From Trueperaceae bacterium (GTDB lineage Bacteria > Deinococcota > Deinococci > Deinococcales > Trueperaceae): a stretch of DNA of 64,000 bases. The stretch spans positions 96,001-160,000 of the forward strand of contig OZ243927.1 of the NCBI GenBank assembly GCA_965213925.1. The letters run 5' to 3'. Every line of letters starts with the position of its first letter. Position 1 is the first letter of the stretch. A program made the translations under genes and the position numbers. Below the pieces are notes generated by a model. The model was not told the origin of the DNA and did not search any database. It worked only from the letters and a program-made list of their open reading frames with translations. Positions 11,694 to 29,703 of this stretch are shown here, one piece after another.

Positions 11694-11759
11694 GTCCTTC
11701 TCCATTAGAATTGCGTTAGAATCATCTTGAGGCTACGTTACAACTCACGGAGGTTTCGC

Positions 11760-13295
11760 ATGAAGAGGTTTTTCGTCGTCTTTCTCGCCCTTTTACCCTT
11801 TGCCTTAATGTCACTCGTTGGGGCGCAGCAGCCCGGCGGCACGCTCCGCGTAGGGATGCAGACCGACCCCGTCGGGCTCGACCCGCACACTACCAACGCC
11901 ACAGCGACGCGCAACATGCTCGAGAACGTCTACGACACCTTAGTCATGTTCGACAGCACCTTACAGATCGTCCCCGGCTTAGCCGAGTCGTGGGAAGCGT
12001 CCGAGGACGGGCTCACCTGGACCTTCACCCTACGCCCTGACGTGACCTTTCACAACGGCGACCCGCTCACCGCTCCCGACGTGGTCTTTTCGCTGAACCG
12101 CATCACCGACCCAAGCGTCGCCTCGCCCCGCTCGGGTGACTTTGCGGTGATCGAGTCGGTTGAAGCGCCGGACGACGCCACCGTCGTCATCAACCTCTCC
12201 GAGCCCTTCAGCCCGCTCTTGTCCAAGCTCGCGCAGAGCCTCAACGTTATTGTCTCAGAAGAGGTGGCGACGGAGAACGACAACGACCTAAATAGCGTCG
12301 TTATCGGTACAGGTCCATTCACGTTTGTGGAATACCTGCCGCAGACGCGGCTCGTCTTGGAAAAGTACGAGGACTTTTGGGGCACGGACGACGCGGGTAA
12401 CGCGCTGCCCTACTTGGACGGCATCACCTTTCAGTTCTACCCGGAGCCTGCCGCTCGCACCACCGCCGTGCAGACGGGCAACGTAGACTGGATCGAGTAC
12501 GTGCCAGCGGCGGACGTGGCGATCCTCGAGGCGGACCCCAACATCGAAGTCGTCGGCGGGCTCTCGGCGAACTTCAGGAGCATCTACCTCAACGTGACGC
12601 GCGAGCCTTTGGGCGACCCGCTCGTGCGCCGCGCCCTCGCTTATGCGATTGACGAACAAGCCGTGGTAGACATCGCGCTCTTCGGGGCGGGCGGCGTGGC
12701 GGCGGCAGGCACGACGATTCCGACGGGCAACTTTTACGCGGTGGAAGAGAGCCCCTATACCGGGCGAGACGCGGAGCGAGCCAGAGAACTCTTAGAGGAG
12801 GCGGGCTACGGCGACGGCTTCTCCTTCGACCTCTACGTGACGAGCACCTACGACTTTCTGCGCACGCCCGCCGAAATCATCCAAGCCAACCTCGCCGAAA
12901 TCGGCGTCACCGCCAACATCGTCGCAGAGGATTGGAGCATCTATTTGCCTACCGTGCAAGAATTCGACTTCGACGCGACCATCCTGGGCGAGTCCGGTCA
13001 GAGCGACCCCGACGACTTTTTGTACGATGTGTTTCATTCGGAGGGCGGCGGCAACTTCGGCGAGTACAGCAACCCGGAACTCGACGCACTTTTAGAGGAG
13101 GGACGCCGCGTGAGCGGTCAAGAGGAGCGTAAAGCAGTCTACGAAGAGGTGCAAGCGCTCATCTTAGAAGAGTCTCCGCATGTATTCCTCTTTCACTCCG
13201 CGCAGTATGAGGCGTTGCAGTCTTATGTGCAGGGGTTCGAACACTTTCCGAATACGAGTTATTTAGGATTGCGGACGACGTGGTTGGAGAGGTGA
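11760..13295 (+). CDS. ABC transporter substrate-binding protein, family 5 (DppA-like)
   Basis: Signal peptide, LAESW, FTLRPDVTFHNG, IGTGPF; GGAGG RBS. Confidence 0.95.
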   Translation: MKRFFVVFLALLPFALMSLVGAQQPGGTLRVGMQTDPVGLDPHTTNATATRNMLENVYDTLVMFDSTLQIVPGLAESWEASEDGLTWTFTLRPDVTFHNGDPLTAPDVVFSLNRITDPSVASPRSGDFAVIESVEAPDDATVVINLSEPFSPLLSKLAQSLNVIVSEEVATENDNDLNSVVIGTGPFTFVEYLPQTRLVLEKYEDFWGTDDAGNALPYLDGITFQFYPEPAARTTAVQTGNVDWIEYVPAADVAILEADPNIEVVGGLSANFRSIYLNVTREPLGDPLVRRALAYAIDEQAVVDIALFGAGGVAAAGTTIPTGNFYAVEESPYTGRDAERARELLEEAGYGDGFSFDLYVTSTYDFLRTPAEIIQANLAEIGVTANIVAEDWSIYLPTVQEFDFDATILGESGQSDPDDFLYDVFHSEGGGNFGEYSNPELDALLEEGRRVSGQEERKAVYEEVQALILEESPHVFLFHSAQYEALQSYVQGFEHFPNTSYLGLRTTWLER

Positions 13296-13301
13296 GGAAG
13301 G

Positions 13302-13368
13302 AGCAATGAGTTCCGAGCAATGAGTAAAAGTCTTTCAACTCATTGCTCATTGCTTTCAACTCATTGCT
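13302..13368. repeat. GCAATGAG/CTCATTGC intergenic repeat, copy B
   Basis: AGCAATGAGTTCCGAGCAATGAGT...ACTCATTGCTCATTGCTTTCAACT. Confidence 0.85.
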
Positions 13369-13393
13369 TCTTACCTTTTCGCTACACTGCGCT

Positions 13394-14505
13394 ATGCTTC
13401 TCACCCCTCGGCGCATCCTCCACATCGACGCGGACGCCTTTTACGCCAGCGTGGAGCAGCGCGATAAGCCCGAATTAAGAGGTCAACCTGTCGCGGTGGG
13501 GTGGTCCGAGCAGGGCGGGGTGGTCTTGACTGCGAGCTACGAGGCGCGGCGCTACGGCGTCCATAGTGCGATGCCGTCTATTCAAGCAAAACGTCTTTGT
13601 CCCGAACTCATCTTCGTGCCCGCTCGTATGGCGCTTTACAAAGAACTCAGCCTCGCCATCCGTGAGATTTTTGGACGCTATACCGATGTGCTCGAGCTTG
13701 TCTCCATCGACGAGGCGAGGCGTATTTGGACGTGACCCAACCTAAACAGGGTCCGGCGTCGGGCACGCTCGTTGGCAGAGCGATCAAGCAAGAGGTCAAA
13801 GAGGAGACGGGGCTCACCGTCTCGGTAGGCGTGGCGGCGGGCAAGTTCTTAGCGAAGCTCGCCAGCGGGATGAACAAGCCCGACGGTCTCACCGTGATTA
13901 CACCAGAGGACGCCGCCGCGATTTTGATCTCTTTGCCTGTTGCCAAGATTCACGGCGTCGGTCCGGTGACAGCCCAGAGACTGCATGAACGTCATATCTT
14001 TACAGGGGGTGACTTGCTGGAATGCTCGTTGGGAGAACTCGAGGCTCACTTCGGCAAGTTCGGCGGTTTTCTCTACCAGATTGTGAGAGGTCAAGACGAG
14101 CGTCCGGTTAAAGCGAGAGAGCGCAAGTCGTACGGGGCAGAACGCACCTTTGTAACGCCTTTGCAACGTGAGGAAGAGGTGCTGGGGGTGCTGGGGCCAC
14201 TTACTGAACACGTTGCGCTTTACCTCGAGAACGCCAACCTCTGCGCCCGCACGCTAACGCTTAAACTTAAAGACAAGCACTATCAGGGCGTCACCCGCTC
14301 CGTGACGCCTGCGCAGCCGCTCCAAAACGTCGAGACGATGACCTTGTTTGTTCGGCAACTCCTACGCGCCAACCTTGACCAGCTACCCGTTCGGCTCGCT
14401 GGGGTGAGCGTGAGCAATTTGCAAGGACCGAGTAAGGTGGTGCAGCCTGGGCTTTTTCCTGACTTAGATTCTAATTCAGCGTGCGCACAAGCTGAGCGTC
14501 AATAA
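13394..14505 (+). pseudogene. dinB: DNA polymerase IV (Y-family), frameshifted by a 5-bp duplication
   Basis: HIDADAFYASVE, SYEARRYGV, SIDEA|YLDV split by GAGGC duplication at 13712-13721, KFLAKLAS..KPDG. Confidence 0.9.
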
Positions 14506-24949: not shown

Positions 24950-25825
24950 ATGTCCGACGTTGCGACCAAACACCTCCCCGTACTCATCTCCACCCCGCAC
25001 TCCTCCGGCTTCGTCCCCGACGACATCTTGAGCGAGATGTTGGGCGACAGAGCGAGCGATGAAGGTTTGCGCGAGCGGTTCTTAAAGCGGCTTTTCTTCG
25101 AGGGCGACCCCTACACCGACCAGATTTTCCGGGCGGAGGGGGCGCTGCACTTCAACGCGGCGGCGTCGCGCTTTGTGGTGGACTATAACCGGCGGCGCGA
25201 CGAGAGCGGCGCGAACGGCGTCATCAAGCTCACTGACTTCAGCGCCGAACCGCTTTATCCCGAGGATTATAGGCTCAGTCACGAAGCCGCCGAAGCCCGC
25301 TTAGAAACCTATTGGGACCCTTTCCACAAAGCCATCGAACACGCCCTAGAGCGCGAAGACATCCTCTTTTTCGTGGATGGTCACGCGATGGCACCTGTAG
25401 GACCCGCCATCGGACCCGACAGCGGCAAGTTGCGCCCGGCGCTCACGCTGATTACGGGTGGCGACAAGGAGGGCAAACCCGCAACACCGGGAGCCTACAC
25501 CAGCGTAGACGCCGAGACCGCGCACGCGCTCATTGAGAGGCTCGAGCATCGCTTCAAAGGCATTATGAACGTCTGTCCCAACGTGCCGCCGCGCGCCCTT
25601 CTCAATTCGCCCTTTATGATGGCGGACATCCAGCGCCGCTACAGCAACCCCGTCTTCGCGCACCATAAACCGGGCTTTTCGCTAGAGGTCAACCGCGCCC
25701 TCTACTTGCAAGGTTGTGAGAACGGCTTCGACGAGGCGATACCGGAGCACATCGAGATGCTCAATGCGGCATTCAATAACTTTTTAGAGGACATTATTCC
25801 GCTGTTTGAGAAGCGCGGGGGGTAG
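24950..25825 (+). CDS. N-formylglutamate amidohydrolase family protein
   Basis: STPHS, D.YTD, SRFVVDYNR, YWDPFH, DGHAM, LEVNRALY. Confidence 0.85.
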   Translation: MSDVATKHLPVLISTPHSSGFVPDDILSEMLGDRASDEGLRERFLKRLFFEGDPYTDQIFRAEGALHFNAAASRFVVDYNRRRDESGANGVIKLTDFSAEPLYPEDYRLSHEAAEARLETYWDPFHKAIEHALEREDILFFVDGHAMAPVGPAIGPDSGKLRPALTLITGGDKEGKPATPGAYTSVDAETAHALIERLEHRFKGIMNVCPNVPPRALLNSPFMMADIQRRYSNPVFAHHKPGFSLEVNRALYLQGCENGFDEAIPEHIEMLNAAFNNFLEDIIPLFEKRGG

Positions 25826-25849
25826 GCTCGAGGGTTGAATAGTACGTCG

Positions 25850-25883
25850 AAAGCGGTGCAAAGGTGATTTTGCACCGCTTTTT
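25850..25883. terminator. Probable bidirectional intrinsic terminator
   Basis: AAAGCGGTGCAAA-N6-TTTGCACCGCTTT(TT) between convergent ORFs. Confidence 0.75.
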
Positions 25884-25919
25884 GTTGATGGGACTTTCAG
25901 GTCGGTGTGAGCTGTCGGC

Positions 25920-26105
25920 TCAATCTCTCTTATTGATGCCGTCCCTTTTATTGATCCCATCTCGTTTGTTGATGCCGTCCCTTTTGTTAATCCCGTCTTG
26001 GTCTTTTCCCTCCCCGCCCTTCGAGGGTTCACCCGAGTCTTTTTTCTCTTGCTTGAGAAAATCATTCTTATTTGTGGAATCAGCTTCTCTACTTTGGTCG
26101 CTCAT
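25920..26105 (-). CDS. 61-aa hydrophilic peptide with four tandem DGINKR repeats
   Basis: AAGGAG RBS 8 nt before ATG; repeats differ only at synonymous positions; terminator downstream. Confidence 0.75.
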   Translation of the reverse strand: MSDQSREADSTNKNDFLKQEKKDSGEPSKGGEGKDQDGINKRDGINKRDGINKRDGINKRD

Positions 26106-26177
26106 GCCCGGTCTCCTTAGTCTGAATTTAGAGCAAAGCTCTTTGGGTCGTGCGAAGGTCTTTCCTTCAGAAGCAGT

Positions 26178-28577
26178 CTAAACACTTACCTCTGACTGCA
26201 CCCTGAACGGGTGACTTTTAGGAAGCTGATTCTGATGCTGCTTGATGTTGTCGGGATGTCCGGTGACTTCGAAGAGATACATCGCCTCTTGCCACGCCTC
26301 GAAATCTTCGTTTAGCTCTGCAAGGTTAGCGAGTGTCGTCGCAATAACGTAGGAGTCTCCCGCTTTCTGCGCATGTTCGTACGCCTGTAAATACGCCCCT
26401 TCCGCCTCACGTAAGTCGTTCATCTTATGGCAGTCGCCCAAATTGTTCCAAGCCACAGCCATCGTCGCAGGGTCACTGACTTCCTCAGCCAAAGCGATAA
26501 CGCCTCGGTATATCTCTATCGCCCTTTCAAATTCTTTGAGGTTCTCGTACACGCACCCGAGATTGATAAGCACCATCGTACGCAACTCCGGGTTTGTTCC
26601 TGCCGCCGCCAACGCCTCCCGGTACGCTTCTTCCGCATCCTCACCTGCACTGCTCTGCGCTACCGCTGCGTTGTTGAGCGCCCCCACCCACCGCGTCTTC
26701 TTCCCGACTGCCAGCCACAACGCCGCCGCCCGCCTGAACTGCTTCGCCGCCTCTTCGTACTTACCTTTTGAGAACGCCACGTTCCCCAACACATTCTGCC
26801 CCTCCGCCCGCGCCTCGATACTCCCTTTAAGTGCGATTTCCGCCGACCTCTTCGCCTCTTGCGGATGACCCAAGCGGTAGTGAAGCGTCGCTCTAAGCGC
26901 CAGCACTTCAGGTGTTTCGGCGAGGTTTTGGATGCAGGCGAACGCTTCTTGATAGCGACCTGAGCGCTCTAAGGCGCGACCTTTCAAAAAGGTCACGGGG
27001 CGCGTGTCGGGGGCGTCTTGGAGGGTTTCAAAAGCGCGTTGCGGAAAGCCGCGACGCAAGAGTTCTTCCGCCCAGGCGAGGTACGCACTAACAACATCGG
27101 CTTCGTCCTCTTGCGCCCAAAGAGGTCTCGAGCGTTTATAGAGCGGAAACGCCTCGACGCCCGATAAGCAGCGGGCGAGTTGCAGCGACAGGGGACCTAA
27201 GCGGGTGGGGTGCGCTTCTAAGAGTTCTAGCGCGACGCGGCGCACGCGCACCTTGCCCGAAGGCTCGACGAGACCGGCGGCGAGCAAGGACTCGAGCGCT
27301 TCAGCCATCGCTTTGGCATTGAGGGACAGTGCGCGGCGCACGAGCGCGGTGTCCGGGTCGGCGTCGTCTAAAAGGGCGAGCGTCAAGTAGACCTCTTTGG
27401 CGGTGGCGGGCAGGGCGGCGAGTTGGGCTTCCAACGCTTTTTCAGGCGGTTCGCCGCGCAAGAAGGCTTCGACCAAGGCGGGAACGCCTTGGGTGTGTTC
27501 CCACGCGCCGGTGTGCTTTTCCAAAGCGCGTTCGGACAAGGGGGACAGCTCGAGCCGCATATCCACCCCGAACGGCGGGTTCTCGCGTGAGGCGATGACG
27601 AGGCGGGCTTTCGGGCGGAGGTCATGAAGCTTGCGCAGGAGCGCTTGACTGGCGGTGTCCACGTTCTCCCAGTTGTCGACCAGCCAAAAGCCCTCCAGCT
27701 TAGCCAGCGTCTGCAGCACCGCACCCTCGCCCTCTTGGAGTGTCGCGCCTACGAGGGGTTCCAGCGTCGCGTAGGGCAACCCGGAACGTCCGGGCAGGTA
27801 GGTTCCTTGCGCACTCTTGAGGAGCGCCGTCTTGCCTATGCCCGCGCCGCCGCAGACCCAGGCGCATTCGCCCCTAGCCAAGGTCAGGAGCCGCGCCGCT
27901 TCGCTCTCGCGCCCGACGAGCACGCGCTGGAGCCGCGCCCTCGCGTCGCGCGGAGAGAACACGAGCGTGACGCCGTACCCCTGCGCCTCCGCTTTAAGGT
28001 GCGCCGCTAGCGGGTGGTCGCCCGCTTGTAGAAGGAGGTAGAAGCGGCTCAGGTCTTCGGGCTCGCTCTCCGGTGCGCCGGGCAGCGTGAAGGCACGTTC
28101 AGCGCGCGCCGCCGCCCCGGTAAAACGTCCTTGGGCGGCGCCATTTTCGGCTAGGCGCAGTGCGGCATGTTGAACCCGCGCCGCGAGGTCCTCTCTCGAG
28201 GCGTAGACCCATTCCTCTAGCTCGGGGCTCCAGTCGGAGAGGTAGACGCCCTCTAGGAACGCGCCCGTGTAGAGCGTCAACGCCCGCTCTGCGTCGCCAC
28301 GCTCTAACGCTCCTAAGAGGTCCGCTACATCCGAGGAGAAGGCGGGCCATACGCGCAATTCGTCCGCTTCCAAGGTGCCCGGCGCACCCTTGCGGAGCCG
28401 ACTGAGCGCCGCCGAAAGGCTGTTCAGGTGACTGCTCGCGCTAGGCCAGAAGAGTTCGGCTAAGTAGCGCCGCTCCTTTGGACCCTCCAGGGCAAGATAC
28501 GCCAGCAACAAGAGCGGTTTGACCCGCGAAAAGTCGCCGTCCTCAAAGCGAAGCCCCCCCAAGGTCAAGAGCTTCAT
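26178..28577 (-). CDS. SARP/BTAD-like N-terminus, P-loop NTPase, TPR-repeat regulator
   Basis: KPLLLLAYLALEG..R..LAELFWP, LYTGAFL, Walker A GGAGIGKT, Walker B-like WLVDNW, TPR motifs NVLGNV/INLGCVY/NNLGD. Confidence 0.85.
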   Translation of the reverse strand: MKLLTLGGLRFEDGDFSRVKPLLLLAYLALEGPKERRYLAELFWPSASSHLNSLSAALSRLRKGAPGTLEADELRVWPAFSSDVADLLGALERGDAERALTLYTGAFLEGVYLSDWSPELEEWVYASREDLAARVQHAALRLAENGAAQGRFTGAAARAERAFTLPGAPESEPEDLSRFYLLLQAGDHPLAAHLKAEAQGYGVTLVFSPRDARARLQRVLVGRESEAARLLTLARGECAWVCGGAGIGKTALLKSAQGTYLPGRSGLPYATLEPLVGATLQEGEGAVLQTLAKLEGFWLVDNWENVDTASQALLRKLHDLRPKARLVIASRENPPFGVDMRLELSPLSERALEKHTGAWEHTQGVPALVEAFLRGEPPEKALEAQLAALPATAKEVYLTLALLDDADPDTALVRRALSLNAKAMAEALESLLAAGLVEPSGKVRVRRVALELLEAHPTRLGPLSLQLARCLSGVEAFPLYKRSRPLWAQEDEADVVSAYLAWAEELLRRGFPQRAFETLQDAPDTRPVTFLKGRALERSGRYQEAFACIQNLAETPEVLALRATLHYRLGHPQEAKRSAEIALKGSIEARAEGQNVLGNVAFSKGKYEEAAKQFRRAAALWLAVGKKTRWVGALNNAAVAQSSAGEDAEEAYREALAAAGTNPELRTMVLINLGCVYENLKEFERAIEIYRGVIALAEEVSDPATMAVAWNNLGDCHKMNDLREAEGAYLQAYEHAQKAGDSYVIATTLANLAELNEDFEAWQEAMYLFEVTGHPDNIKQHQNQLPKSHPFRVQSEVSV

Positions 28578-28740
28578 GCGCTCACTATAGCGGATTCACG
28601 TCCTTTTTTCACGTTTCAAAGGGTGAGCTAAGGCGTTTATCATCCGCTCGAGCCTCTAGCTTGACGAGAGCGAAATGCGTGCCAGCTTTTCTCCCACTTG
28701 GTGCACCGTCAAATAAAGCGGAATCCGTGTGAAATCCTCG

Positions 28741-28774
28741 AGACTCACCGTTCGTCCCCGAAAGGGGATTGCTC
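28741..28774. repeat. GCAATGAG/CTCATTGC repeat remnant, copy E (with hairpin insertion)
   Basis: AGACTCA[CCGTTCGTCCCCGAAAGGGGA]TTGCTC. Confidence 0.65.
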
Positions 28775-28829
28775 GTTCCTCATCGCTCTTCGTTCATCAC
28801 AACACTATTCGACTTCGCGAACCCGAGTT

Positions 28830-29438
28830 TTATTTTTTATACGCCCACACCGCGTAGAGCGGGTCGCCCTGCTCGGGCTGGTGGTGTTGGCTATACGTCG
28901 AGCCGAACGCGGGCGTTTGCCCGAAGTAGCTCCGCACGAGCCGCACGTGCGAGGCGTCGTCGCCTGCGCGCCACGCGAGCACGGCTTTGGTCGGGAACAT
29001 GCGGTTGGAGAAGGTCACGATAAAGGGCGCGCCGGGCTTTAAGCTGTGGGCGACCTCAGCGAAGGTGTCGTCGGGGCGGGTCATGTACTGCACGCTCACC
29101 GTGCACACCGCGCCGTCAAAACGCTCGCTCTCAAAAGGAAGCGTCTCTGAGCGGTTGAGGTCGAAGACGAGAGGTTCGCTGACTAAAGGGTTGTTCGACA
29201 ACTCTTCTATGTTGAGACCTAAGCCCGTCACCGCCGCGAATTTGTCCGGCAGGTGCGAGACGTGGCTCGCCATGAGGTCTAAGACGCGACCGCCGGCGGG
29301 CAAAAGCTCATCATAGAGGTTATAAGCCGCACCTCTCGCCGCCTCGTCGATGTGCGTGACAAAGCGCGGATGCTGGTAGAAGTAACTGTCGGGACGCTCG
29401 TCCTGACGGCGAAAAAATTCAGGAAGAAGCTTGCTCAT
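28830..29438 (-). CDS. SAM-dependent methyltransferase (type 11-like)
   Basis: D..FY..PRFVTHID, VLDLM.S..SHLP, VSVQY..RP, FSNRMFPTKAV. Confidence 0.9.
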   Translation of the reverse strand: MSKLLPEFFRRQDERPDSYFYQHPRFVTHIDEAARGAAYNLYDELLPAGGRVLDLMASHVSHLPDKFAAVTGLGLNIEELSNNPLVSEPLVFDLNRSETLPFESERFDGAVCTVSVQYMTRPDDTFAEVAHSLKPGAPFIVTFSNRMFPTKAVLAWRAGDDASHVRLVRSYFGQTPAFGSTYSQHHQPEQGDPLYAVWAYKK

Positions 29439-29703
29439 GACCCTAGCCTGACCCTTTACGAGGCGATTAGCAGCAAGCCACCTCACGATTCTAAAGGTTG
29501 AACGTTAAGGTAAAGGAAGAGTGAGAAAATGCATAGGAGATGCCGTCGCTGCTGAATCTCGCACTAGTCCTCGCGCTGAGCACCGCCCTGAGTTGAGACG
29601 TCAGCCGCTGAGGTTTAGCTGACGAGCGCTCGAGGTGGGTGGTGCGAATAAAGCGCCGCGAAATACCCCTTAGGAATGGAGACCGGCACCGCAAAAATAC
29701 CGC

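Follow-up and report, generated by a model that had tools for sequence, protein, structure and literature searches.

A large SARP-type regulator and a hexapeptide-repeat microprotein downstream of its 3'-end promoter box in a Trueperaceae genome: a tentative AfsR/AfsS-like module in Deinococcota

The locus described here lies in a 64,000-nt stretch of a Trueperaceae contig (OZ243927.1; Deinococcota), hereafter called the window, and all coordinates are positions in this window. Two neighbouring genes on the minus strand are its subject: a regulator of 799 amino acids (26178–28577), a size shared by its homologues of about 800 amino acids, and a small open reading frame (ORF) of 61 amino acids (25920–26105). 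The regulator stop codon and the small ORF are separated by 72 nt (26106–26177) on the same strand, and an AAGGAG ribosome-binding site (26113–26118) stands 7 nt ahead of the ATG of the small ORF, for which the ORF list holds no in-frame start codon farther upstream. The small protein starts with MSDQ and reads MSDQSREADSTNKNDFLKQEKKDSGEPSKGGEGKDQ, with KDQ directly ahead of the repeats, then DGINKR four times and a closing D; each DGINKR is encoded by one of four 18-nt repeat units (25926–25997). A first-pass annotation of this DNA had listed the two ORFs, the gap, the ribosome-binding site and the (DGINKR)x4-D end without stating the strand, and all of these are present, the four 18-nt units reading exactly as it had quoted them.

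The repeat array carries a clear coding signature. Tandem Repeats Finder reports it with a period of 18 and 3.8 copies (25930–25997), and the units differ from each other at 3–5 of their 18 nucleotide positions. The differences fall into seven variable columns, all of them synonymous: six are third codon positions, and the seventh is the first base of the Arg codon (AGG/CGA). All codons of the unit are affected, without a single amino acid change. Synonymous changes make up 10 of the 54 possible single substitutions per unit, and DGINKR was preserved in all copies in 0 of 200,000 random-substitution trials. None of the remaining five reading frames of the repeat yields a repeated peptide without stops or changes. 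Since every codon has drifted and yet no residue has changed, the DGINKR peptide is, on this substitution pattern, under purifying selection in its frame and is not the product of recent DNA slippage, as the first-pass annotation had also argued; we accordingly treat the small ORF, on its codon-level variation, as a real, selected coding sequence. Units 1 and 3 are alike, and so are 2 and 4, a pattern that suggests duplication of a double unit followed by renewed divergence. A 105-aa ORF runs antisense to the small ORF (25864–26181, plus strand); in it the repeats read SLLLMP, SLLLIP or SRLLMP, and are thus imperfect, and its GC content at third codon positions (GC3) is 0.51. We regard this ORF as an artefact of the antisense strand, though a gene caller could choose it.

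The product of the small ORF (6.8 kDa) is very hydrophilic, with a grand average of hydropathicity (GRAVY) of -2.0; among its 61 residues, Leu, Phe and Ala occur only once each and Ile four times. Neither its sequence nor its composition contains a signal peptide or a hydrophobic segment. Its acidic N-terminal half has an isoelectric point (pI) of 4.8 and its basic repeat half one of 10.0, and the DGINKR core holds no Cys, Ser or Thr.

No protein search produced a real homologue of the small ORF, and it is an orphan. A word-indexed protein search scored 238 candidates, none of them at E ≤ 10, and an exhaustive HMMER search of 1.84 billion representatives gave four matches with E-values of 1e-4 to 9e-4, all of them low-complexity repeats in unrelated proteins of 240–401 amino acids. 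The ESM Atlas returned no usable match, and Pfam and NCBIfam returned nothing. Three translations were looked up exactly in a collection of about 15 billion proteins and all were absent: that of the small ORF, that of the 105-aa antisense ORF and that of a 93-aa alternative-frame ORF. The source carries no annotation for the small ORF, and because of this the silence of protein databases says little about its relatives. At the nucleotide level, a tblastn search against 79 homologous loci (see below) and the window gave chance matches only, blastn and tblastx searches of the region downstream of the regulator matched the loci in the promoter box region alone, and a screen for five-residue words repeated at least three times in all 79 loci and the window recovered DGINK in the window only. 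We found no paper containing 'DGINKR'.

The regulator combines three parts. Pfam recognises its tetratricopeptide repeat (TPR) sensor region (residues ~496–780; 26238–27090) with TPR_12 (8.9e-15), TPR_2, TPR_1 and others above the cut-off, TPR_MalT remaining below threshold; PDB sequence matches for this region are TPR proteins only. Pfam matches to the P-loop are weak (AAA_16, nSTAND_NTPase5). The AlphaFold2 model of residues 215–520 (27018–27935) has a pLDDT (predicted local distance difference test) of 93.2, and Foldseek aligns it best with the STAND-TPR protein 6mfv (1.7e-9), then with MalT (8bob), and also with Apaf-1, CED-4 and plant NLRs. The Walker A residues G246, G248 and K249 and the Walker B residue D301 are invariant among 23 aligned sequences, and we assign this part as a STAND/NOD P-loop NTPase. 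MalT and other bacterial STAND regulators resemble the regulator in having a NOD and a helical-repeat sensor that control a DNA-binding output, and differ from it in that the output of MalT is C-terminal and LuxR-type while the predicted one here is N-terminal and SARP-type. MalT responds to a small molecule and to inhibitor proteins, none of which is a repeat microprotein encoded downstream.

For the N-terminal part, structure comparison was needed because a PDB sequence search with the N-terminal profile gave nothing meaningful. The AlphaFold2 model of residues 1–230 (27888–28577) has a pLDDT of 92.8, and its best four Foldseek matches in the PDB are AfsR (8k60 and 8hvr; E 1.8e-5 to 6.6e-5, TM-score 0.57–0.61) and EmbR (2ff4); AfsR chains and EmbR are the sole matches at E ≤ 0.001. 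The entry 8hvr is the structure of AfsR in complex with the afsS promoter. Pfam finds no match at E ≤ 10 in the N-terminal 230 residues and so no BTAD in this protein itself, while 10 of 30 N-termini from the family match BTAD, with a best E-value of 2.3e-5. The domain call made in the first-pass annotation, SARP followed by NTPase and TPR, is thus borne out by family matches and structure models, its SARP/BTAD portion (a winged-helix DNA-binding domain plus BTAD) being invisible to Pfam in this protein. On these models the regulator is a SARP-NOD-TPR 'large SARP', of which AfsR is the studied example.

Relatives of the regulator, about 800 amino acids long and 45–85% identical to it, occur in Trueperaceae, Meiothermus, Calidithermus and Deinobacterium, with Deinococcus among the loci described below. 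All relatives found belong to Deinococcota apart from one contig labelled Chloroflexota, and the three closest share 81–85% identity. SARP-STAND regulators are therefore a conserved family in Deinococcota. A review states that SARPs are exclusive to actinobacteria (PMC10972967), and among the matches listed in our literature search we found no paper joining 'SARP family' with Deinococcota, Trueperaceae or Meiothermus. A 'SARP domain' mentioned for Deinococcus in PMC1274311 refers to a eukaryotic apoptosis-related family and is irrelevant here. A genome scan with the regulator yielded 79 loci (numbered L001 to L079; best identity 57%), and the 36 with a full-length match were examined in the comparisons that follow. 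Loci L037–L079 generally hold paralogues with the same SARP N-terminus followed by an nSTAND1 NTPase (E ~1e-110) and WD40 propellers, without TPR (for example L062:3001-6837, L064:3001-6645 and L070:3001-6636). There are several of these per Trueperaceae genome, with six loci on each of two chromosomes, and they are an expansion of SARP-STAND regulators outside actinobacteria. The window itself contains no paralogue of the regulator.

A promoter scan places the regulator's own promoter at 28584–28612 (minus strand; GTGAAA, 17 nt, TATAGT). Its -10 element ends 6 nt ahead of the ATG, and most homologous loci show a comparable spacing: in most of the upstream regions of L001–L061 a TAnnnT hexamer ends 5–8 nt before the regulator ATG and no Shine-Dalgarno sequence is present. 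Translation of the regulators probably starts on leaderless mRNAs, unlike that of the DGINKR ORF with its canonical AAGGAG. A direct repeat of ACGTGAA with a period of 13 nt (28595–28601 and 28608–28614, minus strand) ends 5 nt before the -10 of the regulator and may serve as an operator, either in autoregulation or for some other factor.

A second promoter signal was found at the other end of the gene. Within 120 nt of the regulator stop codon, 23 of the 36 homologous loci carry a box CGTTCA-N5-CGTTCA with at most two mismatches (no mismatch in 12 loci, one in 6 and two in 5; the remaining 13 loci have three to five). In six loci (L003, L004, L006, L015, L018 and L026) the box lies past the stop codon, and because of this it is conserved as DNA and is not merely a by-product of the protein C-terminus. 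Sites at the regulator stop include L009:5444-5478, L011:5354-5400 and L026:3157-3191, with others throughout L008–L036 and elsewhere. In 18 of 18 loci that carry a particular conserved ORF downstream (the MPRS-type ORF described below), the box is followed after about 12 nt by a -10-like hexamer and after a further 6–7 nt by the first ATG. Chance would give about 0.04 exact copies of the box (12 specified bases, 716,512 positions). Further exact copies with a similar hexamer occur elsewhere in the loci, often divergent from the regulator start (L019:2919-2953 and L021:1477-1511, both on the minus strand, and L034 near 2307, minus strand). CGTTCA-N5-CGTTCA followed by 12 nt and TAnnnT looks like a regulon signature of the Deinococcota SARP-STAND regulators. 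Target promoters of large SARPs have direct repeats at a spacing of 11 or 22 bp, with about 8 bp between the 3' repeat and the -10 element. SARP sites with the 11-bp spacing and 8 bp to the -10 have been published (PMC10936776), and the afs box repeat has been given as CGTT(T/C)ATCGNN (PMC10972967); as a sequence pattern, the geometry of the family box fits the published SARP sites and its CGTTCA half-site resembles the afs box repeat.

In the window the corresponding promoter occupies 26175–26209. Its box, CGTTCAgggtgCAGTCA (26193–26209, minus strand), consists of two direct repeats 11 bp apart within the last codons of the regulator and departs from the family consensus at two positions; 12 nt after it follows the predicted -10 element TAGACT (26175–26180), which includes the regulator stop codon and is assigned from this spacing and from the TAnnnT of the homologues. 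The box stands in register -32 from the stop, as in L013, L014, L025 and L030. The composite of box and -10 occurs once in the 64-kb window where 0.04 would be expected, although the pattern was written after the window site had been seen. From the position of the -10 element, the transcript of the small ORF is predicted to start near 26168, giving a leader of about 60 nt (5' untranslated region 26106–26168) that includes the AAGGAG. Between the box and the small ORF the minus strand holds no further gene, and nothing else lies before the hairpin that follows the small ORF. We infer from this layout that the regulator would bind the box at its own 3' end and that the small ORF would be transcribed from that promoter. 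The general idea of the first-pass annotation, a connection between the small product and the regulator, gains support in this way from a family-conserved SARP-type promoter that points at the small ORF. A GACC-N7-GACC pair 8 nt before a TAAATT in the 72-nt gap had also been considered as a promoter; it was dropped as a 4-mer coincidence after the family box was found upstream.

The 36 homologous loci carry something other than a repeat ORF at this position. In 18 of the 36 loci, a different conserved small ORF (MPRSAYLLEETLWLEVxD...) starts 3–51 nt past the regulator stop and in nearly all cases overlaps the start of a gene with a signal peptide or lipoprotein signal; the three lipoprotein genes scanned all encode S8 subtilases. 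The usual downstream gene of the regulator family is thus, by its predicted product, a secreted lipoprotein S8 protease. The MPRS-type ORF (for example L010:5395-5655, L011:5395-5613 and L003:5449-5709) starts 6–7 nt after the -10 and is probably leaderless, and its codon-position entropies of 0.76/0.75/1.41 (14 ORFs) suggest that it is translated. Both the ATG of the overlapping S8 lipoprotein gene and its GGAGG site fall within the 'LEVxD' codons, so that the MPRS-type ORF may couple or gate translation of the protease. One locus alone, L015, is syntenic with the window, a methyltransferase gene downstream being common to both. The promoter, ribosome-binding site and start codon of the window and of L015 align loosely, and the ORF bodies do not.

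The best-studied system of comparable layout is AfsR/AfsS of Streptomyces. As reported in PMC10832544, afsS lies directly downstream of afsR, AfsS proteins have 63–87 amino acids with two to five repeats and are 17–38% identical between species, and S. avermitilis AfsS carries the hexapeptide NTHITD in four copies. According to the same report AfsR activates afsS, and AfsS binds AfsR with a Kd of 4.7 uM in a manner that requires the repeats and strengthens promoter occupancy by AfsR. A further report describes AfsS proteins as too variable for BLAST and calls their orthologues by synteny (an ORF of <200 aa right behind afsR) and internal repeats (10.64898/2026.09.02.748808). The Trueperaceae locus resembles this system in several respects. 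Its regulator has the same SARP, NOD and TPR architecture; its small ORF stands directly downstream on the same strand and, with 61 amino acids, is close to AfsS in size; it has four tandem hexapeptides, as in S. avermitilis; its product shows no recognisable domain and is fast-evolving or an orphan, which sets it beside AfsS as published; and two direct repeats spaced 11 bp apart, with a CGTTCA-like half-site, lie near the -10 element. Because the small ORF has both the synteny and the internal repeats by which AfsS-type proteins are called, we read the locus, tentatively and at a little short of even chances, as a two-gene, AfsR/AfsS-like module within the Deinococcota.

On this AfsR/AfsS-like reading the regulator would be a STAND-type activator with a SARP module for DNA binding and activation, a P-loop NTPase as switch and a TPR sensor. 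Two SARP modules would occupy the two direct repeats, which stand in for a -35 element as in other SARPs, and with the box placed at the end of the regulator gene, 12 nt before a -10, the regulator would switch on the gene directly downstream. That target would be the secreted lipoprotein S8 protease in most relatives and the 61-aa ORF in the window lineage. From its own Shine-Dalgarno site the latter would give a very hydrophilic, probably disordered cytoplasmic microprotein, whose DGINKR repeats would bind the regulator and modulate its DNA binding, closing a feedback loop. The step in which the regulator drives the small ORF from its own 3'-end box has comparative support in the homologous loci; that the repeat microprotein acts back on the regulator is probable by analogy with AfsS, and from the same analogy we infer the binding itself. 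A predicted complex of the full regulator and the 61-aa protein scored 0.01 where the mark is 0.32; made without control predictions, it counts neither for nor against binding. The more specific history, in which an NLR-like transcription switch outside actinobacteria acquired an AfsS-type partner independently, is unlikely in our estimate, though it would account for the locus: a lineage would have lost the protease target, the orphaned SARP-box promoter would have captured or given birth to a repeat microprotein, and the four DGINKR units would bind the TPR sensor multivalently in a feedback loop.

The locus also departs from AfsR/AfsS. It belongs to another phylum, its box lies inside the 3' coding end of the regulator itself, its repeat motif DGINKR is unrelated to NTHITD, its small ORF is not conserved across a regulator family whose usual downstream gene is the S8 protease, and no AfsK-type kinase partner was seen in the window.

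Several observations weigh against the AfsR/AfsS-like reading. The regulator has 799 amino acids and AfsR 993, and in the SARP module the structural alignments to AfsR and EmbR show 18–22% identity; by these figures the regulator is not an AfsR orthologue. The second half-site of the window box is degenerate (CAGTCA), and the window holds 7 copies of the bare box at two mismatches where 6.3 are expected; since such a box is no rarer than chance, the argument from the window box rests on positional homology. The window box moreover overlaps conserved C-terminal codons, where DNA and protein constraint are inseparable. The first-pass annotation had proposed to look for repeat-core small ORFs behind homologous regulators and had named their absence as evidence against its own idea; within 450–500 nt downstream, 0 of the 36 full-length homologous regulators (best identity 57%) has one, nor is any of the 36 followed there by a hydrophilic small ORF, the three closest regulators lying outside these loci. 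At the position of the DGINKR ORF, L015 carries instead a lipoprotein-like ORF of 44 amino acids (L015:5467-5601), which has a GAGGAGG site of its own and may be a remnant of the signal peptide of the ancestral protease. Finally, the GC3 of the small ORF is 0.52, compared with 0.62–0.83 in 25 genes of the window, and its Arg codons are rare ones only.

The main rival explanation keeps the promoter and drops the feedback. The small ORF would be a target of the regulator, and its product an output microprotein acting elsewhere, for example as a hydrophilin-like disordered stress protein or a nucleic-acid-binding protein. This explanation draws on the same promoter evidence as the AfsR/AfsS-like reading, and it agrees with the relatives, in which the target at this position is an effector protease and not a partner. 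The strong hydrophilicity of the product and the split into an acidic and a basic half also suit it, small hydrophilic repeat proteins being known to act as stress proteins. However, no Pfam, NCBIfam or remote match to a known small stress protein was obtained, and strictly conserved repeats this short resemble a multivalent binding ligand more than a bulk hydrophilic protein; TPR sensors bind peptide motifs. We consider an output role doubtful, yet it deserves to be taken seriously. It is improbable that the small ORF is instead young or non-functional, a sequence left at an orphaned promoter after loss of the ancestral protease. Such an origin would explain its orphan status and atypical codon usage, the replacement of the downstream gene both in the window lineage and in L015, and the loose alignment of its ribosome-binding site and start region with those of the different small ORF of L015. 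The all-synonymous variation of the repeats, however, would hardly arise unless selection on the peptide had been sustained, and the strong ribosome-binding site has been retained.

Two further explanations treat the small protein as a precursor. The neighbourhood is one of housekeeping genes (by Pfam, NAD kinase, cytidylate kinase, EPSP synthase, methyltransferases and NrdR). A Pfam scan of 30 ORFs between 11.7 and 43.3 kb, of which four gave no family match at all, found no maturase, radical-SAM, YcaO, lanthipeptide, ATP-grasp, peptidase or ABC exporter family. The first-pass annotation had favoured a processed hexapeptide as ligand or inhibitor of the TPR domain and had likened the layout to RRNPP signalling. 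In a version of the RRNPP kind, cleavage of a pro-peptide at its KR pairs would yield exported DGINKR hexapeptides that act as quorum-type or inhibitory ligands of the TPR domain. Like Rap/Phr, PlcR/PapR and AimR/AimP, the locus joins a cytoplasmic TPR protein with an adjacent small ORF, and its identical cores are parted by dibasic KR; an oligopeptide-type SBP_bac_5 gene is present at 11727–13295, though it is 13 kb off and such genes are common. The proposal fails on the product itself, which has no signal peptide, hydrophobic stretch or other export signal, and on the regulator, which is a SARP-STAND protein with an NTPase and a SARP output and not an RRNPP-type receptor with a helix-turn-helix or phosphatase output. 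No peptidase or exporter family stands nearby to process it, and no repeat small ORF follows the 36 homologous regulators. RRNPP systems are known from Firmicutes and their phages, to neither of which this genome belongs, and we hold this explanation highly improbable.

Still harder to credit is a multicore precursor of a ribosomally synthesised and post-translationally modified peptide (RiPP), with a leader, four cores and modifying enzymes encoded elsewhere in the genome. The likeness is one of form: as in multicore RiPP precursors and the Kex2-processed repeat precursors of fungi, an N-terminal non-repeat part precedes identical short cores with KR between them. Kex2-type processing is eukaryotic. 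SARPs often control natural-product clusters in actinobacteria (PMC10972967). Here, in contrast, the neighbours are housekeeping genes without a maturation enzyme in the scanned interval, a secretion signal is lacking, and the core is without the Cys, Ser or Thr of the kind that most RiPP chemistries use, so that the RiPP comparison drawn in the first-pass annotation also falls away. That annotation had concluded that the small ORF fits neither known class. It was right in that the defining features of RRNPP and RiPP systems are lacking, and it missed the closest known system, AfsR/AfsS.

Behind the small ORF, a hairpin with a 13-bp stem (25850–25881) separates it from a convergent, formylglutamate-amidohydrolase-like gene (24950–25825, plus strand; Pfam scan). 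The hairpin has a folding energy of -26.7 kcal/mol and a z-score of -5.45, and 0 of 200 shuffled sequences were equally stable. The first-pass annotation had named a terminator downstream of the small ORF. The hairpin is indeed there, but its T-run is on the plus strand, on the side of the convergent gene, and on the side of the small ORF only UUU follows the stem; the element is at best a shared bidirectional terminator, and we assign it to neither strand. It is not among the hits of a terminator consensus scan, and an Rfam scan of 25000–29500 gave no match at E ≤ 1. Farther away, two overlapping ORFs on the plus strand (13343–13735 and 13726–14505) share a Y-family DNA polymerase (Pfam IMS) between them, the IMS profile being divided at positions 99 and 102. 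The split suggests a frameshift, whether the gene is a true pseudogene or the sequence contains an error.

The strongest new facts are the regulator family and its box; the role proposed for the microprotein is tentative. What is new with respect to AfsR/AfsS is the different phylum, the unrelated repeat, the box in the coding end of the regulator and the protease as the usual target of the family. A review would confine SARPs to actinobacteria; Deinococcota have a SARP-STAND family whose box can be recognised, whose predicted regulon has a secreted S8 protease at its head and whose target promoters lie in the regulator's own 3' end; these predictions can be tested in cultivable strains of Meiothermus, Calidithermus or Deinococcus. 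The microprotein, unannotated and absent from about 15 billion proteins, is a further example of a coding sequence that gene callers miss. The AfsR-AfsS interaction was reported only in 2023 (PMC10832544), and the natural upstream signal of AfsR-type regulators is called unknown in a recent report (10.64898/2026.09.02.748808). If the AfsR/AfsS-like reading is true, a second, unrelated large SARP with a microprotein of four hexapeptides would offer an independent and much simpler system for testing repeats as multivalent sensor ligands. If, more specifically, the partner was acquired independently, the locus would be a tractable case of the de novo birth of a regulatory microprotein, and the pairing of a large SARP with a downstream repeat microprotein would be a recurrent, convergent design and not a peculiarity of Streptomyces.

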